DNA of 64,000 bases from Myxococcota bacterium (GTDB lineage: Bacteria; Myxococcota_A; UBA796; UBA2385). The translations under genes were made by a program, and so were the position numbers. Below are positions 9,089-55,287 of this stretch, piece after piece (position 1 is the stretch's first letter; each line of letters begins with the position of its first letter). The notes below the pieces were generated by a model. The model saw only the letters and a list, made by a program, of their open reading frames with translations, did not search any database and was not told the DNA's origin. Where the stretch lies: NCBI GenBank assembly GCA_044344255.1, contig JBIJDH010000002.1:32001-96000 (forward strand), in the 5' to 3' direction.

Positions 9089-9505
9089 ATGCTCAGTCCC
9101 AAACGTGTAAAGTTCCGCAAGAGCCAAAAGGGCAATAGGCGTGGGCTGGCCTATCGCGGATGCGACGTTTCTTTCGGAGACTTCGGGCTCCAGGCTGTGG
9201 AGTGTGGCTGGCTCACCTCCCGGCAGATCGAGGCGGGCCGTATCGCGCTCACCCGCCACGTGAAGCGTGGTGGGAAGGTGTGGATCCGCATCTTCCCGGA
9301 CAAGCCCGTAAGCAAGAAGCCCGCCGAAACCCGAATGGGTAAAGGAAAGGGCAACCCCGAAGAATGGGTGGCCGTGATCCTCCCCGGGAAGGTCCTCTAC
9401 GAAATCGAGGGGGTCCCCGAGGACGTGGCTCGCGAAGCCTTCCGGCTCTGCGGGCACAAGCTGCCTGTGAGTACCAAGTTCCTGGCTCGTCGTGAGGTGC
9501 TGTGA
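9089..9505 (+). CDS. rplP: 50S ribosomal protein L16
   Basis: [27 protein letters not shown]. Confidence 0.99.
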
Positions 9506-9867
9506 TGGCCAAGCTCTCTCTTGAAGGTCTCAGCGATGAGGCCCTCGTGCACAAGGAGCTCAGCCTCGAGCGTGACCTCCTCGAGGCGTCCTTCCGGCTC
9601 CGTACCGGTCAGCTGGAGGACAACTCCAAGACCGGGAAGGTCCGTCGGGACATCGCCCGCGTTCGCACCGAGGAGCGCGTCCGTGAGACCGCCCAGGGTC
9701 TGAACAAGGACGAGCTCCGTACCCGTCATCGGGGCACCTTCCGGCCGCAGCCGGTGGCCGCCTCGACCGGAGCGGGCGGCGAGACCGCCCAGAAGGGCGG
9801 CTTCTTGAGCGGCCTCGCGGGCAAGCTCGGGATTGGCGATCAGGGCGCGGAGCAGTCCGGGTCCTGA
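9505..9867 (+). CDS. rpmC: 50S ribosomal protein L29 with a roughly 58-aa C-terminal extension
   Basis: Follows rplP with TGATG overlap; core motif FRLRTGQLED...VRRDIARVRT; 120 aa versus the usual 60-70 aa. Confidence 0.9.
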   Translation: MAKLSLEGLSDEALVHKELSLERDLLEASFRLRTGQLEDNSKTGKVRRDIARVRTEERVRETAQGLNKDELRTRHRGTFRPQPVAASTGAGGETAQKGGFLSGLAGKLGIGDQGAEQSGS

Positions 9868-9886
9868 GCGGTTCTGGGGAGCCGGG

Positions 9887-11245
9887 ATGAGCGGCGCGCC
9901 GTTGTCGGAGCGTCCCGTCCCGGCTTCTTTGTTTGGGGCTGGCAATCCCTATCGTCGGGTCCACGCGCTGCGACGGCGGCGGCTCGGCGGAGGGTGGGCC
10001 ACCCTGCTCCCCGTGGTTGTCGCGTTGGCGGCTACGCCCTTCACGAACGGCCCAGTGGAGCGCCTGCTCGTGGACATCGGCGGGCTGCAGGGCGTGGAGG
10101 CGCTGACCCTTCGGGCGGCGCTTCTGGCGGTCGCCGCGGTCGCCTTTCATTCTTACGCCGACTTGGTGCGTGGGCCGGATCGGGTCGTCGCCGACGCGCA
10201 CCCCGTACGAGCGGGGGACATGGTGAGGGCCATCGGGCTCCACACCCTCCGCGAGCGGGCGTACCTGCCGCTGGTCGCCGCCACGCTGCTCTCGCCGATC
10301 ATCGAGGTCGAGGGGACCGGCGTCTGGTTGGCCTCGGCGGCGGTCGTCGGTGCCTCGATGGTGGGCGCGGTTGGGGTGGGGCTCGCGGTGCACATCAGCG
10401 CAGTGGGCTTCGCTCTGAGCCCCCGAGCGGGCTGGGTCTTGGAGCTGCTTCGGGGTTCAACCCCCCGCATGCACGCGGCCCTCATCTACTCTCCAGGCGT
10501 GGCGCTGGTGGTCGCGGGCAGCTTCGCGGCCCTCTCCGTGGAGGGCACCGTCGCAGCGCTGCAGGGTTGGGCGCCGGGCTGGTGTCTCGCTCCGCTGCCG
10601 CTGCTGGCCGGTGGCCTGGGGATCGGGTTCGCGGCGCGCCTGGGGGAGCGTTGGCTCGTGCGCACCACCGCGGTCCTGACCGAGATCGAGGGCTCCTACG
10701 CCGGGCTGGAGCAGGGTGAGGACGGCCGTAGCGTCTACCTGGAGGGCCTGGGGCGGGGGAGGCCCGAGCTCACGCGCGCCCTCCGGCATGGCTGGCGGAG
10801 ACACCGCGCCTTCGCGACCGGGCCTTGGATCGCGGGGGCGCTGGGCGTCGTCGGGGGTTGGTCCGCGGAGGGCGGGGCGCTGGGTCGGGGGCTCGCGTTG
10901 ATCTCCGGCGCGGCCTTGCTCTGTGGGTTGCTGCCGTCGCGCTTCGCCGCCGGTGACCCGCCCTGGCTCGATCGGGCCTTGGGACTATCGGCGGCGCGCG
11001 TGGGCGCTGCCCGGGTTGGGGTGTCCTGGCTGTACGCCCAGGGGGCGCTGTTGCCCGGCCTCCTGCTGCTCGGCTTCCACCACGGAGGCCGCGCCGCTCC
11101 GGCGCTCCTTGGCCTCGAGGGGCTGAGCCTCGGCGTCGCCGGGGTGTCGGCGGTGCTCGGACAGCGATGGCCGGGCCGGGGCGTGTGGTATGCCGGGCCG
11201 ATCGTGCTGCTCACCTGGCTGATCTTCGTCTCGGAGGTGCTGTGA
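9887..11245 (+). CDS. Polytopic membrane protein, probable ABC exporter permease
   Basis: Many hydrophobic segments; stop overlaps the start of an ABC ATPase (TGATG). Confidence 0.6.
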   Translation: MSGAPLSERPVPASLFGAGNPYRRVHALRRRRLGGGWATLLPVVVALAATPFTNGPVERLLVDIGGLQGVEALTLRAALLAVAAVAFHSYADLVRGPDRVVADAHPVRAGDMVRAIGLHTLRERAYLPLVAATLLSPIIEVEGTGVWLASAAVVGASMVGAVGVGLAVHISAVGFALSPRAGWVLELLRGSTPRMHAALIYSPGVALVVAGSFAALSVEGTVAALQGWAPGWCLAPLPLLAGGLGIGFAARLGERWLVRTTAVLTEIEGSYAGLEQGEDGRSVYLEGLGRGRPELTRALRHGWRRHRAFATGPWIAGALGVVGGWSAEGGALGRGLALISGAALLCGLLPSRFAAGDPPWLDRALGLSAARVGAARVGVSWLYAQGALLPGLLLLGFHHGGRAAPALLGLEGLSLGVAGVSAVLGQRWPGRGVWYAGPIVLLTWLIFVSEVL

Positions 11246-42252: not shown

Positions 42253-42912
42253 ATGCGTCCGCTGCTGCTCTCCCTGCTCCTCGCCGCGCTCTCTGCCCCA
42301 GCCTTCGCCAAGAAGGACAAGGGCGACGACGACGAGGGCAAGATCCGCCTCCGCGGCGACACCAACATCGTCTCGATGGACACCTTCTCGATCGTGCCGG
42401 AAGATCCGGACGCCGCCGGCTTTGACGAGGCGGGCTTCAAGTCCACGGGCATCTCGCTCGGCGGCGCCGAGGCGCGCCTCCACATCTCCTACCTCGTGAC
42501 CCCCCAGATCGAGGTGGGCGTGGGCCTCGCGCTCGGCAGCACGACCCTCAAGTCTTTCGTCGACAAGGAAGATCCGGAGCCCCTCGGCAAGACCACGAAC
42601 ATCGGCCTGCTGTTCGAGCCCGCCTACAACCTCAAGCTCACGGAGGGCCTCCAGCTCTTCGTGCAGCCCGAGGTGGGGATCGCCAACACCAAGACCACCC
42701 CCGAGGACGGTGATCCCACCGGCTCGAAGTACATGCTCTACGGGGCCGAGGTGGGAGTGCACAAGCGGCTCGTCAAGCACGCCACGATGGACCTCGGCCT
42801 CGAGTACCTCGCAGGCAGCGGCCATGACAGCGTGGACGGCAAAGAGGACGACACCTATACGAACAAGCTCTCCCACATCGGCATCCGGGCGGGCTTCGGC
42901 ATCCGCATCTGA
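42253..42912 (+). CDS. Outer-membrane beta-barrel protein
   Basis: Signal peptide ..APAFA, alternating beta-strands, C-terminal GIRAGFGIRI. Confidence 0.75.
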   Translation: MRPLLLSLLLAALSAPAFAKKDKGDDDEGKIRLRGDTNIVSMDTFSIVPEDPDAAGFDEAGFKSTGISLGGAEARLHISYLVTPQIEVGVGLALGSTTLKSFVDKEDPEPLGKTTNIGLLFEPAYNLKLTEGLQLFVQPEVGIANTKTTPEDGDPTGSKYMLYGAEVGVHKRLVKHATMDLGLEYLAGSGHDSVDGKEDDTYTNKLSHIGIRAGFGIRI

Positions 42913-43033
42913 GAGGCTCCACGGCCGCGGCCCTGCACCATCCCTGCACAGAGGCTGTGGGGATGCGGCACAGGGCCGCGGCGGGAGCGCCCAGGGGCCA
43001 CCTTAGGTTGGGGATGAACCCAAGGTGGAACCC

Positions 43034-44317
43034 ATGCACCCCCTCCTCCGACTCGTCGGCCTCGTCGCCGTGTTCTTGTTCACGACCGTCTGTTGGTTCG
43101 CCCTCGCCGGGGTGACCAGCTCCCGAACCCAGGAGCAGCAATACGCCCTCGACGGGCGCGTGGCCGACCTCTGGGGCAGCCCGCAGGCCCAGCTCGCCCC
43201 CGCCTTTATCGAGGAGTGGGTGGTGGAGCGGCAGGAGGCCTCCGAGGTCACCGATCCGGTGACCGGCCGCACGATGAAGACCAGCAAGACCGTGCGCGAG
43301 CTCCAGTCCCGCCCGGTCGACCCGAACCGCAGCCGAATCGCCGTCGACCTCAAGCTCGATCAGCGCCGGAAGGGGCTCCTGTGGTACCCCCTCTATGACG
43401 TGGGCTTCTCGGGGGACTGGACCTATCGCCACGAGGGCCGGGACGACCACCTTCGCATCGTCTTCCCCTTCGCCGACAGCCAGGGTGTCTACGACGACTT
43501 CGCCTTCGTGGTGGACGGGGTGGACCGGGCCCGCGAGCTCCACCCGGAGGGGGGAAAGGTCTATACGGTGGTGCCGGTGACGGCCGGCCAGGTGGTGAGC
43601 CTGCACATCGGCTACACCTCCCGCGGCAAGGGGGGGTGGAGCTACCGACCCACCGAGGGCGTGGGCCAGATCGAGGACTTCTCGCTGGTGATGAACACCG
43701 ACTTCGACTCGATTGACTATCCGAACCTCACCCTCTCCCCCTCCTCTCGCACCGCCACCGAGGCGGGCTGGCGCCTCGAGTGGACCTTCTCTCGCCTCGT
43801 CAGCGCTTATGGCATCGGGATGGTGATGCCGGAGCGGGTGCAGCCGGGCGAGCTGTCGAGCAGCATCAGCCTGTCGGCGCCCCTGTCGCTGGGGCTGTAT
43901 TTCCTGTGGATCTATGTCCTCGGCATCCTGAAGGGCAAGAGCATCCACCCGATCAACTATCTGTTCATCGCCGCGGCCTTCTTCTCTTTTGACCTCCTCT
44001 TCGCCTATACGGCTGACCGGCTGCCCGTCGAGCAGGCCTTCGCCCTGGCGAGCGTCGTCAGCATCGGCCTCGTCGCCTCCTACCTGCGCCTCGTCGTCGG
44101 GTCGCGCTTCGCCCTCTTCGAGGCGGGCCTCGCCCAGCTCCTCTATCAGGTGGGCTTCTCGCTCGCGCACTTCTGGGAGGGCACCACCGGCCTCACCATC
44201 ACCGTGCTCGGCACCGTCACCCTCTTCGCGCTGATGCAGCTCACCGGCCGCATCAAGTGGAGCGAGGTGCTCAGCCGACAGGCCCCGGCCGCGCCGCTGC
44301 CGAGCCCGGCCCGCTGA
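43034..44317 (+). CDS. CreD-like inner membrane protein
   Basis: N-terminal TM, WG.PQ.Q, RRKG..Y, IHPINY and C-terminal TM bundle. Confidence 0.75.
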   Translation: MHPLLRLVGLVAVFLFTTVCWFALAGVTSSRTQEQQYALDGRVADLWGSPQAQLAPAFIEEWVVERQEASEVTDPVTGRTMKTSKTVRELQSRPVDPNRSRIAVDLKLDQRRKGLLWYPLYDVGFSGDWTYRHEGRDDHLRIVFPFADSQGVYDDFAFVVDGVDRARELHPEGGKVYTVVPVTAGQVVSLHIGYTSRGKGGWSYRPTEGVGQIEDFSLVMNTDFDSIDYPNLTLSPSSRTATEAGWRLEWTFSRLVSAYGIGMVMPERVQPGELSSSISLSAPLSLGLYFLWIYVLGILKGKSIHPINYLFIAAAFFSFDLLFAYTADRLPVEQAFALASVVSIGLVASYLRLVVGSRFALFEAGLAQLLYQVGFSLAHFWEGTTGLTITVLGTVTLFALMQLTGRIKWSEVLSRQAPAAPLPSPAR

Positions 44318-44363: not shown

Positions 44364-45167
44364 TCACAGATAGGCGCGCACGAAGCCGTAGAGCGGTCGC
44401 AGGGCGGGCAGATAGACCGTCTCCGAGGTATAGAGCAGATAGAGCAGCCGGGCTGACGCCAGCGAGAGCGTCAGCCCGGCTGCCGCCGTCAGGGCCAGGA
44501 GCTCGCCGGGGCGGGCATCCAGGGGCCTGCGGAGGCGCCGGGGCGCGGCGGGGTCAAAGCCGCGGGCGTCGAGGGTCTCGGCGAGGGTGCGGGCGCGGCG
44601 TAAGGAGCGGGCGACCACCGGGCGGAGGAGGGAGAGCTCGAGCGCCAGCCAGGCGAGCGGGCGGCGGGCCCAGACCGGCCGGCCACGCGAGGCGCGAGAG
44701 GCCCGCACCGCGGCGAGCTCGGCCCAGAGGGTGGGGACGAAGCGGAGGGCCGTCACGGCGAGGAAGGCGAGGCCGCTCGGGAAGCGCAGCGCCACGAACG
44801 CGGCGAAGAGGCGGTCGGGGGGCGTGGACAGGGACAGAGAGACTCCGGACAGGCTGAGGGCGAGGAAGCGCAGCGACTGGACGAGCCCGTCCCGGACACC
44901 CTCCCGCCAGAGGGTGAGGGGGCCCCAGTGGATGAGCTCCACCCGCGGCTGCTCGGCGTAGAAGAGGCCCTGGGTGAGGACGGTGCTCCAGACGAGGGCC
45001 AGGACGCCGAGGGTACCGCGCCGCAGGGCCGCGGCCGAGGGGCGCATCGCGAGCAGCGGCAGGGCCGAGACGAGGGCGAGCAGGCCGAGGGAGGTGGCGT
45101 GGTCGAGCGTCACGGCGAGGAGCCCGACACAGGCGAGCAGGCCGAGGCGGAGGCGGGGATCGGTCAT
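44364..45167 (-). CDS. ECF transporter T component
   Basis: DPR.RL N-terminus, ALRFVP, ASRG and AETLDARGF coupling motifs. Confidence 0.9.
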   Translation of the reverse strand: MTDPRLRLGLLACVGLLAVTLDHATSLGLLALVSALPLLAMRPSAAALRRGTLGVLALVWSTVLTQGLFYAEQPRVELIHWGPLTLWREGVRDGLVQSLRFLALSLSGVSLSLSTPPDRLFAAFVALRFPSGLAFLAVTALRFVPTLWAELAAVRASRASRGRPVWARRPLAWLALELSLLRPVVARSLRRARTLAETLDARGFDPAAPRRLRRPLDARPGELLALTAAAGLTLSLASARLLYLLYTSETVYLPALRPLYGFVRAYL

Positions 45168-46771
45168 GGCGACCCCAGCGTGCGCCCGAGCTCGGCGGCG
45201 GTGCGGTGGGGGAGGCCACGGGCGGCGCACCACCGGAGGAAGGGGGGCAAGAGCAGGCTCGGATCGGCCTCGATCGCGGGGAGGAGCTCGGCCGGCGGCC
45301 CATCGGCGACGAGGTGACCCCCGCGGAGCAGCAGGATCCGGGTGGCGTGGCGGGCGGCCAGATCGACGTCGTGGGTGGCGAAGAGCAGGGTAGCGCCGCG
45401 GAGAGACTGGGTGAGGGCCTCCATCATCGCCTCGACCTGGTCGCGATCCTGGCCGGCGGTGGGCTCGTCGAGCAGGAGGAGGGCGGGGCGGCTCGCGAGG
45501 GCCGCGGCCACCGCCACCCGCAGGCGCTGGCCCCGAGAGAGGGCCTGGGGCGCCATCTCCCAGAGGTCCTCCACCGACAGGGCGCGGGCGGCGCGGCGGG
45601 CGGGGAGCGCAGGGTCACCCGGGAGGAGCTCGCGGGGGCCGTACTGGAGCTCCTCGCCCACGGTGGCGGAGAAGAGGGCCAGGTCGGGATCTTGGGGGAT
45701 GAGGATGACCCGCCCGCAGGGCGTGCGCAGGGCGGAGAGGCGCGCGAAGAGGGTCGACTTGCCGGCCCCGTTGCCCCCCAGCACGGCGACCCGCTCACCG
45801 GCGAAGAGCCGCAGCGGCGGGAGATCGAGGGCCAGCGTGCGATCCCCGCCAGCGGCCCAAGCATGGCGCAGCGCCGGGGTGTGGAGGAGGGGCTCGGCGC
45901 CCGGCCCCGGCCCCGGCCCCGGCTCCGAGGGGCCCGGGAGCAGCGAGGCCGGGAGCAGCGAGGTGGGGACAGGCGTCTCGGGCCACCGGGCCTCGATCGC
46001 CGCGGCGCCGAAGCGGTGCTGGAGCTCCAAGAGCGGGGGCACCGACAGGCCGAGCGAGAGGAGGCGGCCGGGGTCGAGCTCGGCGGCCGCCCAGTCGTCA
46101 GTCAGTCGACCGCCCTCCATCACGAGCAGGCGGTCGAGCAGCGGGAGGCAGGGCTCGAGGCGGTGCTCGACGAGGAGCACGCTGTGGCCTTGGTCGGCGA
46201 GGAGCCGGAGGAGCTCGAGCAGGGACTGGGCGCCCACGGGATCGAGGTGGGCGAGGGGCTCGTCGAGGAGCAGGAGCCGCGCGCCCGCCGACAGGGCGGC
46301 GCCGACCACGAGGCGCTGGCGCTGCCCCCCCGAGAGGGCCACCGTGGCGCGGTCGGGCTCGGCGGGGAGCCCGACGGCCCGCAGCAGGCGGTCAATGGTG
46401 GTGTCGAGCGTGCCCGGATCGAGGCCCGCCGACTCGGCGGCGAAGGCGATCTCGTCGCCCAGGGTGCCGGTCACCACCTGATCGACTGGATTTTGAGAGA
46501 CGAAGCCGATCCGCGCCACCCGCTCTGCGGGAGAGAGCGCGGCGGGATCGGCCCCGCCGACCGACACCGCCCCGGAGAGGGCGCCGGAGCCGTGGCGGGC
46601 GAGCAGGCCGGCCGCGAGGCGGAGGAGGGTCGACTTCCCGCAGCCGGTGGGCCCGGTGAGCAGGGTCAGCGTGCCCGGTTCGAGCGAGAGGCTCAGCCCC
46701 TCGAGCGCGGGCCGATCGGCGGCGGGGTACCGATAGCCGGCTTGGCGCAGCTCCAGCGCGGGCTCGCGCAT
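45164..46771 (-). CDS. ECF transporter duplicated ATPase (A-A' fusion)
   Basis: GPTGCGKST/QNP.DQ/LSGGQ/DEP/EH and GGNGAGKST/QDP/LSRGQ/DEPT/TH. Confidence 0.92.
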   Translation of the reverse strand: MREPALELRQAGYRYPAADRPALEGLSLSLEPGTLTLLTGPTGCGKSTLLRLAAGLLARHGSGALSGAVSVGGADPAALSPAERVARIGFVSQNPVDQVVTGTLGDEIAFAAESAGLDPGTLDTTIDRLLRAVGLPAEPDRATVALSGGQRQRLVVGAALSAGARLLLLDEPLAHLDPVGAQSLLELLRLLADQGHSVLLVEHRLEPCLPLLDRLLVMEGGRLTDDWAAAELDPGRLLSLGLSVPPLLELQHRFGAAAIEARWPETPVPTSLLPASLLPGPSEPGPGPGPGAEPLLHTPALRHAWAAGGDRTLALDLPPLRLFAGERVAVLGGNGAGKSTLFARLSALRTPCGRVILIPQDPDLALFSATVGEELQYGPRELLPGDPALPARRAARALSVEDLWEMAPQALSRGQRLRVAVAAALASRPALLLLDEPTAGQDRDQVEAMMEALTQSLRGATLLFATHDVDLAARHATRILLLRGGHLVADGPPAELLPAIEADPSLLLPPFLRWCAARGLPHRTAAELGRTLGSP

Positions 46772-48531
46772 CAGCTCTCCACCCGACGCAGCGAGTCGGC
46801 GAAGCGCAGCGCCACCCCGCTCGCGGCCAGCACATAGAGGAAGCCCGGAAAGAGGACGATCATCACCACGTACCAGTCGGCGTAGCTCAGGCGATAGAGC
46901 GCCGACTGGAGGGTGAGCCCCGTCGCCGTCCCGACCGCCGAGGCCAGCCCCAAGCCGAGGCCGAGGCGGAGCCAACGGCCGGCCGGCGAGCCCGAGGCGC
47001 CGAGGCCGCGGCTGAGCCCGGTGAGGGCGGCGAAGAGCTCCAGATAGAAGACCCGCGCCGTGACGAAGAGGAGGTCAAAGGGACTGAAGCCGCCGAGCGC
47101 GAAGCCGCGCAGGAGGTAGCCGAGCACGGCGGCGAGGCCGAGGGTGCCGGGGCGGGGCAGGAGGGTGATGAGGGTGCCGAGCAGCACGGTGGAGACGGCG
47201 TCGTCGAGGATCCCGGTGAGCAGCGACGAGAAGGGCCCGAGGATCGCGCCCACCCCGGCGCCGACGAGCTGGGAGACGGAGCCGGCGACGAAGAGCAGCG
47301 CCGCGAAGAGCGCGATGGTGACGAGATCGGCGCTCCGTTGACCGATCCAGCGCGGCCCGCGGAGGCCAAGCAAGAGGCCGCCACCCAAGGAGGCCAGCAG
47401 GGCCAGGCTGAGGCCGACGGCCTGTCGGGTGTCACCCCGCGAGGCGTAGAGGGGGCGCTGGTGGACCGCCAACGGGTGCGAGAGGGGAGCGGAGCTGCCG
47501 AGGGGAGCGGCGCTGAGCTCGAGGGTCCAGGTGCGCGCGGCGTCGAGGGCGGCCTCGTCGACGAAGACGGGTAAGGCGGCCCGGGCCTCACCCTGGGCGG
47601 GCACCCGCAGCAGGACGCTCACGAGGCCGGTGCCGTCGTCGGCGCTGCGCATCCGCGGGCGAAAGACGGGGTCGGGCTGCCCGTCGGGCCCCAGCACCCG
47701 CGCGCGGACCACGAGGTTGATCGGGCTGTCGCTGCGGTTCTCGATCGTGACCCCCGCGTTGGACCAGGGCGCCTCGGAGTTTCGAGGCCGGGTGCCGAGG
47801 GGGCTGTGATCGAGCACGGCCTGCCAGAGCGGCGAGGGGAGGGTGATGCGCCCGCTCGGCCGGGCGATGTCGGGCTCGCCGGTGGGCCCCGCCGGGAAGT
47901 CGACCCGCACGATGCGGAGCCCTGCGGCGACGGCCTCGGTTGAGAGGCGCACGGGCTCCACGCGCAGCGACAGGCGCTGACCGGCGGCCTCGACCGTGAT
48001 CGGGGTGGGCTCGCCGGCGGGCGCCTGGGCGACGAGGCGCTCGCCGGGGCGGAGCACCCCCTCCACCGCGGGGCCGCCGCCGGCGAGGATGCGCACGGGG
48101 CCTGGATCCCGCGCGGTCACGGAGACGGAGAGGCTGGCGGTGGCGCCCTCGACGAGCGGGAAGCGGAGGGTCTCTCCGTCCTGGACGCGCACCCGGCCTT
48201 GCCCGATCGGCGCCTCTACCTCGACGGACAGGGTGGGGGCGCCCAGCGGCACGGAGAAGGGCGTGTCAGAGGAGAGGCCGTCGCCGTCGATCACGCGCAG
48301 CACATAGTCCGCTCCGGCCTCCCAGCGGAAGCTGATCTCCGCCTCCTGGACCGCGGCGGGGAACCGGCGGGTCGCGAGGACGGCCCCGGTCGTGTCCTTC
48401 AGCTCCGCCCGAGACAGGCCGCTCGGCGCGCGCGCCAAGGCCCCCGTCGGCCGCAGCTCCACCGTGACCGGCGCCCGCTCGGCGGCGCAGGCGGCGAGCA
48501 GGGCGAAGAGGGCGAGCGGGGCGCGCCTCAC
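46771..48531 (-). CDS. Lipoprotein soluble domain fused to an ECF S-component-like membrane domain
   Basis: Lipobox LLAAC, about 350 aa soluble beta-rich region, one TM, then DLVTIALFAAL (AxxxA helix 1) and PRPG motifs in a ~190-aa hydrophobic domain. Confidence 0.75.
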   Translation of the reverse strand: MRRAPLALFALLAACAAERAPVTVELRPTGALARAPSGLSRAELKDTTGAVLATRRFPAAVQEAEISFRWEAGADYVLRVIDGDGLSSDTPFSVPLGAPTLSVEVEAPIGQGRVRVQDGETLRFPLVEGATASLSVSVTARDPGPVRILAGGGPAVEGVLRPGERLVAQAPAGEPTPITVEAAGQRLSLRVEPVRLSTEAVAAGLRIVRVDFPAGPTGEPDIARPSGRITLPSPLWQAVLDHSPLGTRPRNSEAPWSNAGVTIENRSDSPINLVVRARVLGPDGQPDPVFRPRMRSADDGTGLVSVLLRVPAQGEARAALPVFVDEAALDAARTWTLELSAAPLGSSAPLSHPLAVHQRPLYASRGDTRQAVGLSLALLASLGGGLLLGLRGPRWIGQRSADLVTIALFAALLFVAGSVSQLVGAGVGAILGPFSSLLTGILDDAVSTVLLGTLITLLPRPGTLGLAAVLGYLLRGFALGGFSPFDLLFVTARVFYLELFAALTGLSRGLGASGSPAGRWLRLGLGLGLASAVGTATGLTLQSALYRLSYADWYVVMIVLFPGFLYVLAASGVALRFADSLRRVES

Positions 48532-50111
48532 CGCATCACGGTGACCCGATAGGCGCCGACGCTGCCCGCCTCGGTTCGATAGGGAAATTCAGCCAGGGCC
48601 AGTCGGCCGTCGGCGCTCAGCGCCTGTCGGAAGAAGACCGGCCCCTCGGTGGAGCAGGTGGTGAGGCGCCGAGCCTCGCCGCCGCGGCCGTCGCCGGGGC
48701 TCGACAGGTCGAAGATCAGCGCCCCGTAGAGGTCGCGCCGGGTGTCGGCGTCCCGCGCCCCCGCGCCCACCGCGAGGCTCTGGCCGTCGGCCCCGAGGCT
48801 CAGCCCCTCCACCCGCTGCTCCCCGTGCCAGCTCCAGCGCTGGGCCCCGTCGAGGCCATAGACCCAGAGGCCGTCTTCGTTCGGGTGGGCCGCGGGGGGC
48901 CGGGTGTCGGGCGCGGCCGCACCATAGGGGATGTTGGTGCCGGAGGTGAGGAAGACGGCCTCGTCTCCGTGCAGGAGCCCGTGGCCGATCGAGGCGGCGA
49001 TCGGGACCTGGCCGGCCATCACGGGGGTGCCCGCGTCGACGGAGGCCAGGGCCGCCCCTGAGCCGAGGCGCTGCAGGCGGAGGCGGCCGTCGCCGAAGCC
49101 CATCAGGACGGCGTCATTGGCCGCGGACACGTCGAGGGCCTCCCACAGGAAGGCGCTCTTCCACCAGGGCGCGAGGGGCTCGATCTGGTGCGCAGAGACG
49201 GGGGAGAGGTCGTCGAGGCGGAGCACCTGGGCGCCATTAACCGGCAGGTCGACCGGCGCCGGGCCGTCGGCGGATCGGCCGACGGCGACGATGACCAGCC
49301 CGCCCGCCTCGTCGACCCGGGGGTGCCAGAGGGTAGCGTCGGCGGCCTCGGCCGGCCAGCGCGCCTTGAGCTGCCCTCGGTCGTCCAGGCGGAGCAGCAC
49401 GGCCTTGTTCTTTCGGACGCCAGCGCTGTCGTTCCACCCGTGTGTGCCGGCGAGGATGAGGTCGCCCCCGGAGAGGACCGAGATGCCATAGGCCGAGGGG
49501 AGGGTATAGACCCCGTAGATGTCCTCTCCGGGCGGGGCCGGTGAGCTGTCGATGAGGTCCGCGAGGCGATAGGACCAGCGCGGCTCGAGGTCGCGGGGGT
49601 CGAGGGCGTGGACGAAGGCGTCCGGGGACTGCTCGCCGGCGTAGAGCGTGTCACCGTCGGGGGCCCAGGCCACGGTCTTCACCATGGTCTCGGCGAGGTG
49701 GCGGCGGGCCTTCACCGCGCCGGTCCAGCCGTCGAGCACGAGCAGGTCGCCGTTGTAGCTGCCCACGGCGAGGCGGTCGCCGGTGGGGGACCAGGCGAGG
49801 GCGGTGTCGGGGGCGTCGCCGCCCATGGCGAGCAGCCGAGAGACGTCGCCGAGCTCCACGCGGAAGAGCGTGAGGCAGTCCGCCTTCTCGGGTGCGGTCA
49901 GGCGGCGCCCCGCGACCTCGATCGCGTGCAGGGGCGACCAAGGGGCGGCGACGAGCGTACCCTGGCCCCCGGGGAGGGGCTGCCCGTCGGCCTCGCCGGG
50001 GAGCACGACCCCGCCGCGGAGGAAGACCACCTCGCCCGTCGGGGCCGGGGCCCCGCCGCAGGCGAGGATCAGAGCGGGCCCTGCCAGTCGAGCTCGGTGT
50101 AGGCGGTACAT
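48528..50111 (-). CDS. WD40-like beta-propeller lipoprotein
   Basis: LILAC, LAWSPTGDRLAVGS, VAWAPDGDTLYAG repeats; start uncertain. Confidence 0.75.
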   Translation of the reverse strand: MYRLHRARLAGPALILACGGAPAPTGEVVFLRGGVVLPGEADGQPLPGGQGTLVAAPWSPLHAIEVAGRRLTAPEKADCLTLFRVELGDVSRLLAMGGDAPDTALAWSPTGDRLAVGSYNGDLLVLDGWTGAVKARRHLAETMVKTVAWAPDGDTLYAGEQSPDAFVHALDPRDLEPRWSYRLADLIDSSPAPPGEDIYGVYTLPSAYGISVLSGGDLILAGTHGWNDSAGVRKNKAVLLRLDDRGQLKARWPAEAADATLWHPRVDEAGGLVIVAVGRSADGPAPVDLPVNGAQVLRLDDLSPVSAHQIEPLAPWWKSAFLWEALDVSAANDAVLMGFGDGRLRLQRLGSGAALASVDAGTPVMAGQVPIAASIGHGLLHGDEAVFLTSGTNIPYGAAAPDTRPPAAHPNEDGLWVYGLDGAQRWSWHGEQRVEGLSLGADGQSLAVGAGARDADTRRDLYGALIFDLSSPGDGRGGEARRLTTCSTEGPVFFRQALSADGRLALAEFPYRTEAGSVGAYRVTVMR

Positions 50112-50428
50112 TCGGCGTCCTCGGCTCGAAAGGCGGTCTCTCTCTCTTCACAGGCGGCGTCGGTCCGGCCCTCCGCCTCGGCGCGGCCCCGGTCTATCGC
50201 GTCCTCCTCGAGCAGGCGCTGCTCCCAGGCCCAGGTCTCACAAGCCTCGGTGAACGCGTCCACGTCGGCGTAGCCGGCCGCCGCCCAGTCCACCCCCCAG
50301 TCGGTGAGGCACCCACCATACAGCTCCGCCGCCGCCGCGCACATCTCGGTGCAGGGATCAGGCGGGCCGGCGCAGGACAGCAACACTGATAGGGAAAGGG
50401 ACAGGACGGGCGAAAGGTGCGCGCGCAT
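50069..50428 (-). CDS. Small Cys-rich lipoprotein
   Basis: VLLSC lipobox plus six further Cys; acidic. Confidence 0.65.
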   Translation of the reverse strand: MRAHLSPVLSLSLSVLLSCAGPPDPCTEMCAAAAELYGGCLTDWGVDWAAAGYADVDAFTEACETWAWEQRLLEEDAIDRGRAEAEGRTDAACEERETAFRAEDAECTAYTELDWQGPL

Positions 50429-50447
50429 CGAGGGGCTCGCGGTGCGC

Positions 50448-51638
50448 CTAGTAGAAGGCGATGTCGTAGGGGGCGATGCCGGTGGTGATCCAGTCGGGGC
50501 CCGTGAGCGAGGAGCAGCTCTCCACGTCATAGACCATCACCCCGCCTTGCGAGTCGGGGTCGGCCCAGGAGGTGCGGGCGGAGATCCAGGCCTCTCCGTG
50601 GCTGTTCAAGCTCATCCCGCTGAGGAAGCTCGTGGTGCTCTCGGCCTCGACGAGGGTGTCCTCGGCCATGTCGTAGCACCAGACGGTGTAGACCGAGGCC
50701 GCGTCGCTCGTGAGCAGGAGGGCCTTGTCGCCGATGGCGACGGCGTCACCGATGTTCTCGCCGATGAGCTCCTCCGAGAGGAGGACCTCGGACTGGGTGC
50801 CGGCGTTGATGTCGAGGACGGAGATCCCACCGTCGAGGTCGATGTTGTAGTCGGCGTCGTAATAGACGCCGGTGCGGACGAGCAGCCGGCCCTCGTCGAT
50901 ACGGCTCAGCGAGGGGCTGGGGCCCACCTCCCAGGCATCGGTGACGGTCTGGCTCGTGCAGTCCACTCGGACGACCGTCCCGCCGTCGGCCAGCCAGCCG
51001 CCGTCCTGGGCGAGCTGCTGGAGGGCGACGTAGAGCGCGCCGCCGAGCTCGATCACGCTGCCGGTCTCGACGAAGCCGTCCCCGTCATCATAAGCGGCGA
51101 GATCGACCACCCCGGTGAGGACGCCGGTGCTGGGGTCGTAGACGCCGATGTGGTCGGAATTGTAGAGGCCGACGAAGAGCTTGTCGTCGCAGACCGCGGC
51201 GCCGAGCGGGTTCGAGCCGGAGCCGGTGGAGAACTCGAGCACGGGGGCTGCCCAGTCGCCGATGGTGTAGAGGCGGACGCTGTCGTATCCGTAGCCGTTG
51301 GCCTCGATCAGCCAGGGGCCGTCGATGTTGAGGTGGGGGTCGCTGGTGAGCGTGGCGAGGCCGTCGGTCACGGTCCAGTCGTCCAGGCTCACCGAGGAGA
51401 GGCCGCCCACCGAGTAGTCATCGGCCACGGTGGCGATGAGCGCGGTGCTGATGTCGGCGTCGGCGTCGGCGTCGGTGTCCCCGTCGGCGTCGGCGTCGCT
51501 GTCCCCGTCGGCATCGGCGTCGGTGTCGGTGTCGCTGTCCGCGTCGGTGTCGGCGTCCGTCTCACCGGACTCCTCGTCAGGGTCGACCTTGGGGGCGCAG
51601 GCGAGCAGGAGGAGGGCGAGGAGGGTCTTCGGGTTCAT
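50448..51638 (-). CDS. YncE/BtuG-like beta-propeller lipoprotein with Asp-Ala/Thr linker
   Basis: LLLAC, (DAD/DTD)n linker, EFSTG.GSNP, KLFV.LY and VG..P propeller motifs; follows the TonB receptor. Confidence 0.75.
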   Translation of the reverse strand: MNPKTLLALLLLACAPKVDPDEESGETDADTDADSDTDTDADADGDSDADADGDTDADADADISTALIATVADDYSVGGLSSVSLDDWTVTDGLATLTSDPHLNIDGPWLIEANGYGYDSVRLYTIGDWAAPVLEFSTGSGSNPLGAAVCDDKLFVGLYNSDHIGVYDPSTGVLTGVVDLAAYDDGDGFVETGSVIELGGALYVALQQLAQDGGWLADGGTVVRVDCTSQTVTDAWEVGPSPSLSRIDEGRLLVRTGVYYDADYNIDLDGGISVLDINAGTQSEVLLSEELIGENIGDAVAIGDKALLLTSDAASVYTVWCYDMAEDTLVEAESTTSFLSGMSLNSHGEAWISARTSWADPDSQGGVMVYDVESCSSLTGPDWITTGIAPYDIAFY

Positions 51639-51701
51639 GTCTTCTCCAGGATTGAAGCGGATGACGATGGCGATACACGCAGCATGCGAGCAGGGCGCGC
51701 G

Positions 51702-53750
51702 TCAGGACTGCCAGCGGAGCGTGAAGAGGAGGGTGCGGCCAGGCAGGGGGTAGCCGGCGAAGTCGGTGATAGGCTGGACGGCCCGCGCGCCCGACGGTCG
51801 GAGGGGATCCCGAGGGACAACCTCGACGAATCGATCGAGGAGGTTGAGCCCCGCGAGCTCCATCGAGGGCCAGGCGGCGGAAGGCTGGAGGCGGAGGAAG
51901 GCGCCGTGGATCGAGCGTGGGGCCGAGCGGAACCAGTTGGTGGCGTCCCAGTAGTTCCCGTCGGTGAAGCTCCAGGTGTGGCCGATCCGGGCTCGCTCCT
52001 CCCAGTGCAGGCTGGTGGCCTGTCCGAGCTCCCAGGTGGGGACACGCGGGAGCTGATTGTTGGAGACGGCAGGGATGGGCACCAGGTTTCGGGAGAGGGT
52101 GCGGGTGAGGTTGCTTTGACTGTCCAGGTGACCGCCGAGGTCGAGGCTCACGGCCAGCTCGAGACCCTGCACCCAGGCCTCCCCCACATTGACGGGGATC
52201 AGCACCCGCTGGGCGTTCTGCATCCAGGTGATGAGGTCTTCGGAGGCGCTCCAGTAGTGGGAGAGGTCGAGGCTCCCGCTCAGGTGTCGGCCCGAGTGGA
52301 CGAGGCGCCCGCCCACGTCCCACTGCCAACCGCGCTCGGGCTTCAGCGTCGTGTTCCCGGCCATGGCGCCGCGGTCGCCAAAGAGCTCGGTGAGATCGGG
52401 CGGACGGATGGTGTGGCCGCCGTTGGCCTTGAGCGCGAGGGCCGGCGTCGGGCGGTAGAGGACGCCCAGGCGGGGGTTGAGGGCGAGGAGGTCGGTGGTG
52501 GGCTCGGTCTGGGCGGCGTCGTACTCAAAGACGGGCTCGTCGAGGCGGAGCGCGTGCCAGGCCTGGGCCTGGACCACCGGGGAGAGGGTCCAGCGGTCGC
52601 GGTTGAAGCGGAAGGTGCTGGCCAGCGAGGCGCTCCCGCCGAGGCGGCTGCGCGGCAGGGCCTCCTCTTCCTGCACGAGGTCGGTGGCGATATACCGCTC
52701 CTGATGAACAGAGAGCGTGAGGGAGGGCGACACCCAGGAGGCTGGTGTCCAGAGGGCGTGCGCGAGGCCGCCGCGGTCGCGCGTGTCGCCGCGGATCTGC
52801 TGGCCGCCCGAGCCGAGCTCGCCGGAGAGATCGTCGAAGAGCTCGCGGCGATCGAGCTGCCAGAGGCGGAGGGTCAGCGCGCTCGCCTCGCCGCAGCGCT
52901 CCAGGCTGAAGACCCCGAGGTTGCGCCGCGTGTCGAGGCTGGCCTCGAGGGCGGGCAGGTGAACCGGTCCCGGCAGGCCTTCGTCGCGAGAGAGCCAGGC
53001 GTCGAGGAGGGTGAGGCGGAGCGCGCCGTAGCGGGCGCGGAGGCGGGCCGTCGCGGCGAGCTGGTCCTTCTCGTTGTTCAAGCGAGGAGCGACGGCGTCA
53101 TCGGCGAGGTTGTAGAGGGTGCCGTTGTCGTCAAAGGCCTCATAGTCCGCGGCGGTCGTGAAGAGCTCGGCGGTGAGGAGACCGTCGAGCTCCCAAGGGC
53201 CAAGCTCGCCCGTCGGCGTCGTGAAGGCGTTGAATCGGCCAGTGTGGTAGCTGCCGCCGCTCACCGCGACGGTGGACGGCCCGGGCACCTCTGCGCTCAC
53301 GAGGTTGACCACGCCCCCCATCGGCGCCGCCGAGAATTCCGGCGGGGCGTTCCCTCGATAGAGCTCGACCCGGGAGAAGGCCTGAAGCGGCAATTCGGAG
53401 AGGTTGACCGTGTCGCTCCCGTCGGGGTTGAGCGGCACGCCGTCGAGGAAGACCGCCACTTGGCGCAACGTCGAGCCGCGGATGCTCACCGCCGAGAAGG
53501 AGCCGAGGCCGCCGAGCTCCACCACGGTGGTGCCCGAGGCGGAGTCGACCACGGAGGCGACGTCCGCCCCGCTGGAGAGGCGCGTGTCTATCGGGATGAC
53601 CGTCACGCTCGCGGGCGTGAGGCTCGGGTCAGGCCCGCGGAGGCCGACGACGACGATGTCACCCACGCCCTCGACAAGCGAGGGATCGGCGGGTGGAGGG
53701 TCTGCGGCGGCGGCAAAGGTGAGGGACAAGGGCAGGAGCAGCGGCGTCAA
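51702..53750 (-). CDS. TonB-dependent receptor, probable cobalamin receptor (BtuB-like)
   Basis: Plug motifs SIRGS..QV.VFLDGVPLN and VELYRG; R.P...EL, GN..LKPE, PLPGR...LRW; TTG start after GGAGG; downstream of a B12 riboswitch. Confidence 0.9.
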   Translation of the reverse strand: MTPLLLPLSLTFAAAADPPPADPSLVEGVGDIVVVGLRGPDPSLTPASVTVIPIDTRLSSGADVASVVDSASGTTVVELGGLGSFSAVSIRGSTLRQVAVFLDGVPLNPDGSDTVNLSELPLQAFSRVELYRGNAPPEFSAAPMGGVVNLVSAEVPGPSTVAVSGGSYHTGRFNAFTTPTGELGPWELDGLLTAELFTTAADYEAFDDNGTLYNLADDAVAPRLNNEKDQLAATARLRARYGALRLTLLDAWLSRDEGLPGPVHLPALEASLDTRRNLGVFSLERCGEASALTLRLWQLDRRELFDDLSGELGSGGQQIRGDTRDRGGLAHALWTPASWVSPSLTLSVHQERYIATDLVQEEEALPRSRLGGSASLASTFRFNRDRWTLSPVVQAQAWHALRLDEPVFEYDAAQTEPTTDLLALNPRLGVLYRPTPALALKANGGHTIRPPDLTELFGDRGAMAGNTTLKPERGWQWDVGGRLVHSGRHLSGSLDLSHYWSASEDLITWMQNAQRVLIPVNVGEAWVQGLELAVSLDLGGHLDSQSNLTRTLSRNLVPIPAVSNNQLPRVPTWELGQATSLHWEERARIGHTWSFTDGNYWDATNWFRSAPRSIHGAFLRLQPSAAWPSMELAGLNLLDRFVEVVPRDPLRPSGARAVQPITDFAGYPLPGRTLLFTLRWQS

Positions 53751-53833
53751 TGCCAGCCTCCGCCGGGGCTCAAATCGTGGCCCGGCAGGGCGACACGACC
53801 TGTTCTTCAACCCCGAAGAACGATGCGTTGCTG

Positions 53834-54042
53834 CTCGAAGGCCGGTCTCCTGGCTCCTGGATCATCCGCTTCACCACGCCTTCCCGGTGTGACCCAGTGG
53901 CAATTGTGGTGAGCGTCCCCAGTTACAGTGGCGGGGGCCGCGCCGGACTCGGAGAGCGAATGACCCTTTCGGACCATCCCACCACCCCACCGGCTTCCCG
54001 TTTCACCTCCGCCGCCGAGAGGACGGCGCAGGCACCTTCGAG
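53834..54042 (-). promoter_or_regulatory. Cobalamin (B12) riboswitch
   Basis: Minus strand: AGGTGC...GAAACGGGAAGCCGGTG...TCCGGCGCGGCCCCCGCCACTGTAA...GCCACTGGG..CCGGGAAGG...GAGCCAGGAGACCGGCC, closed by CTCGAAGG/CCTTCGAG. Confidence 0.95.
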
Positions 54043-54120
54043 GATCTTCTATGAAAAGAACGAGCCGAGTGACTAATTCAGATCGCGGCGCCTGTCAAGC
54101 GAGGCCGTGGGCAGCCCCCC

Positions 54121-55287
54121 TCACCGGTCGGTGGGGGGGGAGCCGTCGGCGGGCAGGGCGGGGAGCGTGGGGTGGCTCCAGGTCGCCGCGGCGGCGGGCC
54201 GGCCAAAGTAGTAGCCCTGTGCGCAGGCGAAGCCGAGCTGTCGACAGATCTCGGCCTCCTCCGGGCGCTCGACGCCCTCGGCCAACGGTACGATCCCAAA
54301 GTCGAGCACCATCTTGACCAGGGTGCTGACCATCTGGTGCTTCTGCGCGCTCGCGAGGTGGATGTTCCGGATGAGGCTGATGTCGAATTTGAGGAACTGC
54401 GGCGGCGCTTCGACCAGCTCGATGAGCCGGGCCTGCCCGGCGCCGAAGTCATCGTAGGCAAGAGATACGTCGATGTCGCTCAGACGCTCGGCCAGGGCGC
54501 GCATCTGGGGAGGATCGGTGACCGCGGCCTCGTGGATCTCGAGCACCAGCTGCAGCTTCGAGTTCATGGAGCGGAGCTCTGCGAGCTCAACGAGGAGGTC
54601 CGGGTTGTGGGTCTCGATGGGGCGCGAGTTGAGGAAGAGGAGGAGCGGGCGCTCCGGGAGCGTCGCGGCCTCCTCCACCGCTCGGCGGCGAAGCAGCCGG
54701 CTCAGCTCCTCCTCGGCCTCGAAGCCCGCGGCGATGGAGAAGAGGCGGATCGGGCTGGCGGGCATCCCCGGGGCATCGCTGCGGCCCAGGGCCTCGTAGC
54801 CCATGCGGGTGACCGCAGCGTCAAGGCGCACGATCGGCTGGAAGACCACGCGGACCGCGCTCGTGCTGAGCATGTCGCGGAAGGCGCGCGGGTTGTTGAA
54901 GAAGTGATTCGAGAGGCCCGAGGAGTGGATCGAGGTGTTGAGCGTCGGGTGCCGCAGCTCGCCGAAAGACTCGTGGCCGAGGCGGAATTCGGCGGAGGCG
55001 AAGTGGATCACGTCGCCTTCGCTGAGGGGCGCCAAGCTCGAGATTCGGACCGAATTGACGAACGTGCCGTTGGTCGAGCCGAGATCCCGCAGGTGCAAGC
55101 AGCCGCGCTCGTGGACCAGCTCGGCGTGGGTCCATGACACGCCGGTCGAGCGGATCGTGAGCATGAGATCGGGGGAGCGGCCGACGCGGAACGGAAAGTT
55201 GAGGATCGGCACGCGCATGAGCTGCTTGTTCCCTGGGAAGAATCCCTCCAGGAACCAGCCTACGATCGGGGTTTGTAGAGTTGACAT
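54121..55287 (-). CDS. FHA domain + EAL domain c-di-GMP phosphodiesterase
   Basis: VGR, VS..HA, DLGSTNGTFVN (FHA); FQPI, YEALGR, LEIHE, DDFGAG, LKFD, AEGVE, QGYYF (EAL). Confidence 0.92.
   Translation of the reverse strand: MSTLQTPIVGWFLEGFFPGNKQLMRVPILNFPFRVGRSPDLMLTIRSTGVSWTHAELVHERGCLHLRDLGSTNGTFVNSVRISSLAPLSEGDVIHFASAEFRLGHESFGELRHPTLNTSIHSSGLSNHFFNNPRAFRDMLSTSAVRVVFQPIVRLDAAVTRMGYEALGRSDAPGMPASPIRLFSIAAGFEAEEELSRLLRRRAVEEAATLPERPLLLFLNSRPIETHNPDLLVELAELRSMNSKLQLVLEIHEAAVTDPPQMRALAERLSDIDVSLAYDDFGAGQARLIELVEAPPQFLKFDISLIRNIHLASAQKHQMVSTLVKMVLDFGIVPLAEGVERPEEAEICRQLGFACAQGYYFGRPAAAATWSHPTLPALPADGSPPTDR

Follow-up and report, generated by a model that had tools for sequence, protein, structure and literature searches.

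A riboswitch-linked gene cluster of a Myxococcota bacterium that probably imports corrinoids across two membranes through an energy-coupling factor transporter

A 64,000-nucleotide (nt) stretch of a Myxococcota bacterium genome (contig JBIJDH010000002.1, positions 32,001–96,000; hereafter, the window) carries on its minus strand a cobalamin riboswitch followed by genes for a TonB-dependent receptor, lipoproteins and an energy-coupling factor (ECF) transporter. The cluster probably mediates the B12-repressed import of a corrinoid (cobamide or cobinamide) across two membranes using two separable modules, with the ECF transporter replacing BtuCDF. The evidence comes from the riboswitch, the predicted folds, gene linkage, co-occurrence among genomes and the corrinoid need of the host.

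Organization of the gene cluster and its riboswitch

The cluster starts with a cobalamin riboswitch aptamer (RF00174; 53823–54054, minus strand), which matches the full model with 121.3 bits (E 6.8e-30; cut-off 31.5) and is the sole cobalamin riboswitch found by Rfam in the host genome (G000). Seven minus-strand open reading frames (ORFs) follow, all with a coding-type third-position GC content (0.84–0.95). Module 1 consists of a BtuB-like TonB-dependent outer-membrane receptor (51702–53750), a BtuG-like acidic β-propeller lipoprotein of 396 residues with a D/T/A-rich linker (50448–51638) and a small helical Cys lipoprotein of 119 residues (50069–50428). Module 2 consists of a WD40/PQQ-type β-propeller lipoprotein (527 residues; 48528–50111), a lipoprotein–S-component fusion (586 residues; 46771–48531), a YkoD-like double ABC ATPase in which EcfA and EcfA' are fused (535 residues; 45164–46771) and an ECF T component of the CbiQ/EcfT family (267 residues; 44364–45167). 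The first two intergenic gaps measure 63 and 19 nt, and neighbors among the last five genes share 43, 4, 1 and 4 nt at their junctions. An earlier sequence-only reading of the window had described this run, the overlap of its last five genes and the absence of a binding protein or BtuC-type permease from the cluster. Rfam, Pfam and the ORF layout bear out all three points, and neither a BtuF nor a BtuC gene lies within the seven-gene run. Pfam identifies the receptor (Plug, PF07715; barrel, PF00593), weak WD40 repeats, the double ATPase and CbiQ. The Pfam/NCBIfam scan of the run returned no family for the 396-, 119- and 586-residue proteins.

The aptamer is followed by a likely expression platform of two hairpins (53744–53821, minus strand), predicted from fold energy and sequence. 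The first hairpin (53821–53802) exposes a CGGGG loop that is complementary to loop L5 of the aptamer (CCCCG). The second, long hairpin spans the GGAGG sequence (53761–53757) and the likely TTG start codon of the receptor gene (53750), which lies 6 nt downstream of GGAGG; the longest ORF starts at 53810, and the stop is at 51702. The platform folds with −42.5 kcal/mol (z −2.1), which is moderate evidence in a genome of 70% GC, as 7 of 200 shuffled sequences fold equally well. Because one loop would pair with L5 and the other hairpin would mask GGAGG and TTG, the arrangement suggests control of the first gene at the level of translation, with the downstream genes affected through coupling or polarity. 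A promoter and terminator scan detected no minus-strand terminator at any gene junction and no full sigma-70 site upstream; a TTGACA element near 54098 lacks a good −10 element. Contigs from one RNA run, which holds 0.08 of the words, match in short exact pieces over 53711–54046 and 51489–51708, and none bridges the operon.

Structure of the lipoprotein–S-component fusion

The AF2 model of the fusion (predicted local distance difference test score, pLDDT, 91; 43 sequences) contains a signal helix, a lipobox cysteine (Cys15), three β-sandwich, immunoglobulin (Ig)-like domains (residues ~20–365), an extra transmembrane helix (368–396) and an S-component (397–586). The parts of the model were compared with 48,161 chains. 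The helical bundle is best matched by YkoE (5EDL; Z 15.1, root-mean-square deviation 2.6, 171 aligned residues), and 13 further S-component entries, among them NikM, RibU, CbiM, ThiT, PanT, FolT, BioY and BtuM, match at Z 8.6–11.5. The extra helix also aligns with NikM/CbiM, from model residue 370 in 4M5C (Z 11.5) and from residue 374 in 5X3X (Z 10.8). The outer part resembles generic Ig-like sandwiches, and Foldseek with the whole fusion returned generic multi-Ig matches alone (template-modelling (TM) scores 0.12–0.17). The previously proposed S-component identity was confirmed by this fold, no Pfam or NCBIfam family being reached at cut-off.

The lipobox Cys15 residue is kept in 42 of the 43 sequences, and G432, P433, E498, R547 and Y566 are invariant. 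Helix 1 of the S-component carries an AxxxA motif (A407-LFA-A411), a small-xxx-small motif that serves docking on the T component in S-components (PMC11109136). The small-xxx-small pattern occurs in 33 of 38 family members and the strict AxxxA pattern in 4 of 38. A separate alignment revealed a conserved aromatic loop, YRLxxAxWY; its conservation in loci from a GTDB scan was discarded as circular, because those loci had been retrieved with the same motif. In the membrane part (368–586), no His, Cys or Met column rises above 25 of 43 sequences.

A profile of the full-length fusion gathers 524 clusters at 50% identity (473 at 1e-10) from several phyla. PF09819 is touched by 2 of 38 members of the S family (best E 2e-4), and the window protein itself is unmatched. 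A search for stand-alone relatives of 101–352 residues gave 20 matches, mostly on contigs of 1–2 kb (likely fragments) and none with a Pfam family. In five homologues of 268 residues (P0180–P0184, one of them named Pirellulales), the S domain is joined to a short hydrophobic N-terminal segment, and Ig domains are lacking; they represent a natural variant without the outer domain and a useful control.

The second propeller, the ATPase and the T component

The 527-residue propeller was modeled by AF2 with a pLDDT of 93.9. Its fold matches are generic (ODA16, Z 33.6; BamB, Z 30), and eight blades were judged from the closest folds. Residues E160, P205, P253, D341, R343, H409, P410, G463 and G519 are invariant in 46 sequences, 11 of which come from distant lineages. 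The double ATPase carries two Walker A motifs, two LSxGQ motifs, two LLLDEP motifs and two H-loops; its best NCBIfam models are ECF_ATPase_2/1 and CbiO, all below their cut-offs. The T component matches PF02361 with 71.9 bits, bears a DARG motif near its C-terminus and is the only T component encoded in the host genome.

The outer-membrane module

The nearest solved relatives of the receptor are chains named vitamin B12 transporter BtuB (E 7e-14, plug region) and BtuB1. The receptor scores far under the NCBIfam BtuB equivalog cut-offs (72.7 versus 836 and 66.3 versus 599.7 bits). The family profile of the first propeller (51638–50448) matches structures at E 6.5e-5 to 3e-4 that are named as BtuG2/BtuG3 (PMC10404256), which rank behind only a designed-repeat-type WD40 entry. 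BtuG is thus, by profile comparison, the closest natural protein to the putative outer-membrane propeller. The propeller also has a lipobox, a position beside the BtuB-type receptor and an acidic core (52 D/E versus 8 K/R residues). Its Atlas neighbors are of the DUF5074/YncE type (score 0.92), and none of 15 family members has a DUF5074 match in Pfam. The 119-residue lipoprotein contains six invariant cysteines in addition to the lipobox Cys in an alignment of 12 sequences, and it matches no known family. An Atlas search with it found only unnamed Myxococcota clusters at scores up to 0.83 and no structure match at a TM score of 0.5.

Two separable modules and their distribution

In a sample of 301 genomes of the phylum, the S-fusion occurs in the host and in 36 further members of its class; a single weak match lies outside the class (G294). 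In the 36 S-positive loci, several of which are broken off by contig ends, the ATPase and T genes adjoin the S gene in 32, the 527-residue propeller gene in 30, the receptor and first propeller genes in 16 each and the Cys protein gene in 11. The receptor gene lies upstream of the ECF genes in 10 of its 16 loci and downstream in 6, which indicates that the linkage survives rearrangement. At the genome level, the 527-residue propeller is present in all 36 S-positive genomes, including cases on another contig, versus none of 20 S-negative class genomes (at least one further S-negative class genome was left out of this comparison). The receptor and first propeller, often with the Cys protein, also follow a riboswitch in S-negative genomes, where the receptor was found in 8 of 18 with switch loci examined. 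Because the receptor group is found without the ECF genes and the second propeller strictly with S, the receptor, first propeller and Cys protein form a predicted outer-membrane unit (module 1), and the second propeller, S, ATPase and T form a predicted inner-membrane unit (module 2).

A wider GTDB scan kept 80 of 340 loci, partly from the same genomes as the class sample. A T gene (51 loci), the second propeller (50) and the ATPase (49) are near S in nearly all of its 54 loci with enough flanking sequence; the receptor (33), the first propeller (29) and the Cys protein (22) are near it less often. The propeller, S and T genes, and the ATPase gene where the contig allows, are kept together in shuffled order in records titled Nitrospirae, Desulfobulbaceae, Planctomycetota, Firmicutes, Selenomonadales, Actinomycetes, Polyangia and Sporomusa acidovorans. 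Submitter titles of many close homologue loci (Enterobacterales, Rickettsiales, Klebsiella) clash with their likeness to the class and seem unreliable for the range. In the distant loci, the neighbors include CobN, ChlI/ChlD, CbiZ, CbiK, ExbB/ExbD/TonB and TonB receptors. One locus (L148, titled Selenomonadales) carries S-ATPase-T-propeller twice in tandem (93–1400 and 9248–11125). ORFs resembling ExbB/ExbD/TonB separate the two copies, which are followed by a CobN-sized ORF and a TonB receptor. Another (L166, G297:C215) is an exact inverted duplicate of the operon, broken in the S gene, and is probably an assembly artefact.

In 11 of the 36 S-positive class genomes, the 8 kb upstream of S on the same contig contain a cobalamin riboswitch; G297, with the genes spread over two contigs, is a probable twelfth. 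The riboswitch was found in 6 of 17 distant loci, heading the ECF-containing run in 4 (L140, L143, L145 and L147). The riboswitch directly precedes an ECF run with no receptor gene ahead of the ECF genes in G277, L082, L094, L140, L143 and L147, and in G277, L082, L094 and L140 it adjoins the ECF genes without a receptor between. A scan of 22 further loci found two cobalamin switches and two tRNAs and no other riboswitch class. No thiamine pyrophosphate, flavin mononucleotide or S-adenosylmethionine (SAM) switch was present among 39 loci scanned. The link of the ECF module to B12 is recurrent, not universal.

These distributions modify the sequence-only reading in two respects. Conservation of the cluster holds for module 2, and the seven-gene run as a whole splits into two modules; likewise, the riboswitch recurs at ECF loci in several phyla but stands upstream in 11 of 36 class relatives. 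The proposal of one periplasmic relay formed by all three lipoproteins is not upheld, since the first propeller and the Cys protein accompany the receptor even in genomes that lack the ECF genes, the first propeller resembles the surface-lid protein BtuG (PMC10404256), and only the second propeller belongs to the ECF genes.

Two side observations concern the riboswitches. Other cobalamin riboswitches in the class (L154, L168, L156, L157 and L186) precede unnamed lipoproteins and Rieske-domain or MopE-repeat proteins, which are unexplained members of the B12 regulon. The Sporomusa acidovorans DSM 3132 locus (L143) contains four cobalamin riboswitches within 21 kb, one of which heads a cbiK-S-ATPase-T-propeller run and another a TonB receptor gene.

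Corrinoid economy of the host and distribution of permeases

The host genome (95% complete) encodes two methylmalonyl-CoA mutase-family proteins and 26 B12-binding domains above cut-off. Most of these domains reside in ORFs of ~500–600 residues, probably B12-dependent radical SAM enzymes. MetE, CbiC/CobH and CobN were not found in the genome, which possesses CobU, CobT, CobS and PduO. This combination identifies the host, as far as its gene content can tell, as a corrinoid salvager with heavy B12 demand. TonB and ExbB homologues are encoded elsewhere in the genome. The absence of a BtuC-type permease, noted for the cluster, extends to the genome, in which no FecCD/BtuC permease was found. A lone BtuF-like Peripla_BP_2 gene (L068; G000:C7:116585-117265, protein start MRVVSLTCS) has no evident signal peptide and no permease gene in its 3.7-kb locus, and its product is possibly a cytoplasmic corrinoid-binding protein. 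An ORF of ~240 residues at G000:C7:127655-128230 shares 55% identity with a portion of a CobB/CbiA protein, and tblastn detected no full-length partner.

Full-length FecCD permeases occur in all 20 S-negative versus 10 of 36 S-positive class genomes; 13 S-positive genomes with partial matches only (E 1e-5 to 1e-11, starting at profile position ~80) were scored as lacking a full-length permease. In a tree of 35 permeases, two clades (12 and 3 rows, 100/100) are purely S-negative, and the permeases of S-positive genomes form a weakly supported group. The G242 and G207 permease genes follow cobalamin riboswitches, and one of the purely S-negative clades has a member directly behind such a switch. 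From this reciprocal distribution, the ECF and BtuC-type systems look interchangeable, with the reservation that the genomes are kin and not independent.

The gene content of the host and its relatives also bears on two other substrates. The ECF module might import free or chelated cobalt or a metal-free ring precursor for the chelatases CobN/ChlID or CbiK, and B12 repression would then report cofactor sufficiency. Consistent with such a role, the module outside the class adjoins CobN, ChlI/ChlD-type or CbiK genes (scanned in L136, L143, L144, L145 and L138, with similar ORFs in further loci), the T component is CbiQ-like, and the extra N-terminal helix of S aligns with NikM/CbiM. However, the host lacks CbiC and CobN and gave no match to CbiK or ChlI with the queries used. 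CbiC was found in 1 of the 36 S-positive relatives, and this near-absence argues against cobalt for ring synthesis. Moreover, S starts with a lipobox and 350 residues rather than Met-His, its membrane part has no candidate column of metal-binding residues above the level given, and CbiZ, a corrinoid-remodeling enzyme, is a neighbor as well. Import of cobalt or a ring precursor is therefore unlikely. The sequence-only reading had offered corrinoid or cobalt uptake by a hybrid machine; a B12-regulated corrinoid route with an ECF transporter in place of BtuCDF is retained, and cobalt no longer stands as an equal option, given the 35 of 36 relatives and the host without CbiC/CobH and the missing metal-binding N-terminus of CbiM/NikM.

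Alternatively, the receptor trio could import the corrinoid, and the ECF transporter could carry a lower-ligand precursor (benzimidazole or α-ribazole) that feeds CobT and CobS. CblT is an ECF S-component for such a precursor. CobU, CobT and CobS are indeed encoded by the host, YkoE, which is nearest to S in fold, has a small vitamin as its ligand, and the aromatic loop could stack a small ring. Nonetheless, this assignment would leave the host without any inner-membrane corrinoid importer found in its genome, the distribution of S is reciprocal with BtuC-type permeases, and a 350-residue domain with a constant propeller is much machinery for a small base. Such a CblT-like role appears quite improbable.

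Proposed function and mechanism

In the proposed corrinoid import, whose substrate, localization, contacts and hand-off order are predictions, scarcity of B12 would let the riboswitch free the ribosome-binding site of the receptor gene through the putative platform. The acidic BtuG-like propeller lipoprotein, assigned by weak homology and presumed to lie at the outer membrane, would capture the corrinoid, and the BtuB-like receptor would bring it in, powered by TonB/ExbBD encoded elsewhere. The second propeller, which co-occurs with S and may dock on its Ig-like domains, would replace BtuF and present the corrinoid to the pocket of S. As in group I ECF transporters, the dedicated double ATPase and the T component would power translocation. 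The extra helix seen in the modeled fold may uncouple motion of the six-helix core from the periplasmic domain, which would remain outside. PduO and CobU/CobT/CobS, the genes for which are present, would finish the cofactor for the B12 enzymes.

A bolder and rather doubtful extension is that the ECF importer depends on an extracytoplasmic binding complex, in which the eight-bladed propeller (His409, Asp341, Arg343 and Glu160) would constitute a new corrinoid-binding class docked on the S-fused Ig-like domains. The constant propeller and the tethered domain suggest a departure from ECF transport without a soluble binding protein and from toppling of S, because a lipid anchor and an extra helix that tie S to the outside would keep it from being freely expelled or from toppling as a whole. 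If true, this arrangement would unite the ECF design with that of binding-protein ABC transporters, replace BtuCDF in several phyla and put the toppling model to a natural test.

Several observations weigh against the corrinoid assignment. The similarities of the receptor and the first propeller to BtuB and BtuG are weak, a profile of 38 S domains matches no PDB sequence at E 10, and the best fold match of S is a thiamine carrier. Ten S-positive genomes retain a FecCD permease, and the Fisher p of 6e-8 for the S versus FecCD 2×2 table is overstated, the genomes being kin. NCBIfam failed to separate BtuC from heme permeases, no scanned permease reaching a cut-off (39 proteins from 15 of the 35 permease loci); one neighboring ATPase (L192, from an S-positive genome) passes the heme ATPase cut-off. 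The search for BtuM (PF20221) had no positive control, and an unseen importer may exist. The chelatase neighbors in distant phyla also fit a metal or a metal-free precursor.

Two further points of this kind would be expected if the ECF module had an unrelated substrate or job, such as transport of heme or of a different vitamin, or an envelope role for the BamB-like propeller, and had joined the B12 operon only in some lineages. The first is that 12 of the 36 relatives, with long upstream sequence, are clearly free of an upstream riboswitch (another 13 have less than 7 kb of flank). The second is that the receptor trio stands apart from the ECF genes, under a riboswitch of its own, in at least six S-positive genomes (G202, G050, G026, G087, G107 and G142). 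The generic fold matches of the propeller would agree as well. Cobalamin riboswitches and corrinoid genes nevertheless accompany the module in several phyla and in varied gene orders, other riboswitch classes were not found in the loci scanned, and five genes overlap in the window. An unrelated function is accordingly very unlikely, and corrinoid import by two modules is preferred.

Comparison with known transporters

By fold and gene content, the system is a group I ECF transporter, yet it is neither CbrT, BtuM nor CbiM. ECF-CbrT of Lactobacillus delbrueckii mediates ATP-driven uptake of cobalamin and cobinamide through an S-component and complements Escherichia coli dFEC (PMC5997447). The window system would share this ECF-type uptake but has no detectable sequence similarity (no PDB chain is matched by the S profile). 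It differs in the lipid anchor of S, its ~350 extracytoplasmic residues, the extra helix, its own double ATPase and T component, the propeller and the outer-membrane receptor. CbrT is not among the 50 fold matches listed for the S domain, from a library that holds representatives only. YkoEDC of Bacillus subtilis, a group I ECF transporter for thiamine under THI-box control in a Gram-positive bacterium (PMC5037267; PDB 5EDL), provides the best fold match and is likewise a riboswitch-controlled dedicated module with the order S, fused double ATPase and T; unlike the window system, it has no extracytoplasmic domain or propeller.

In Bacteroides thetaiotaomicron, a cobalamin riboswitch likewise controls a TonB receptor gene and, after it, the gene for an acidic propeller lipoprotein; BtuB-BtuG there rely on BtuFCD for the inner-membrane step (PMC10404256; review PMC13616437). 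The window cluster shows weak similarity to it and instead combines an ECF transporter with an unrelated small Cys lipoprotein. The S-component fold of BtuM from Thiobacillus denitrificans (8OVV, Z 8.6) serves B12 in a diderm that likewise has BtuB and no BtuCDF; BtuM is solitary, works without an ECF module and ligates cobalt with a Cys residue (PMC6072759). In the window system, by contrast, ATPase and T genes adjoin S, and the membrane part has no invariant Cys.

CbiMNQO and NikMNQO, which are under B12-riboswitch control, resemble the window system in the extra N-terminal transmembrane helix (4M5C and 5X3X), the CbiQ-like T component and the use of auxiliary proteins. In CbiM/NikM, the extra helix bears a free N-terminal Met-His metal site, whereas the fusion has a lipobox Cys and ~350 residues ahead of the helix in place of this metal-binding N-terminus. 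The window system also has large β proteins as auxiliary parts, and its host class mostly lacks corrin synthesis. The auxiliary proteins of metal ECF transporters are CbiN and NikN/K/L, and WD40 is unmentioned in the available text of their description (PMC2667541). A survey of S-component folds reports an added N-terminal helix and cytoplasmic fusions in sensor kinases, and the words periplasm, lipoprotein and immunoglobulin are absent from its main text (PMC11109136). Operon-2 of Dehalobacter restrictus, considered as a precedent for WD40 with ECF, was rejected as it is of the FepBCD type with CbiZ, CobN and chelatase subunits (PMC4285132); the term WD40 did not appear in the 12 of its 14 supplement files that were searched. 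The literature search found no description of the S-fusion family or of a receptor-ECF-propeller operon, although the tables of Rodionov 2009, RegPrecise, subscription journals or bioRxiv supplements could list it. The view of the cluster as an undescribed system accords with this outcome.

Many B12-auxotrophic Gram-negative bacteria have BtuB and lack BtuCDF, so that their inner-membrane step is unknown (PMC6072759). The S-fusion family, which has 524 clusters and neither a Pfam nor an NCBIfam model, is a candidate for this step throughout the Myxococcota class and among anaerobes from other phyla. An S-component with a constant propeller partner and an outer domain of 350 residues bears on toppling and expulsion and on the use of binding proteins by ECF transporters. 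Sporomusa acidovorans DSM 3132 (L143) is a cultured host of the module, which is testable by the E. coli dFEC assay.

Neighboring genes

Three genes flank the cluster without sign of operon membership: a convergent CreD-like gene (43025–44317, plus strand), an outer-membrane β-barrel gene (42253–42912, plus strand) and, upstream of the riboswitch, an FHA-EAL gene (54121–55287, minus strand).

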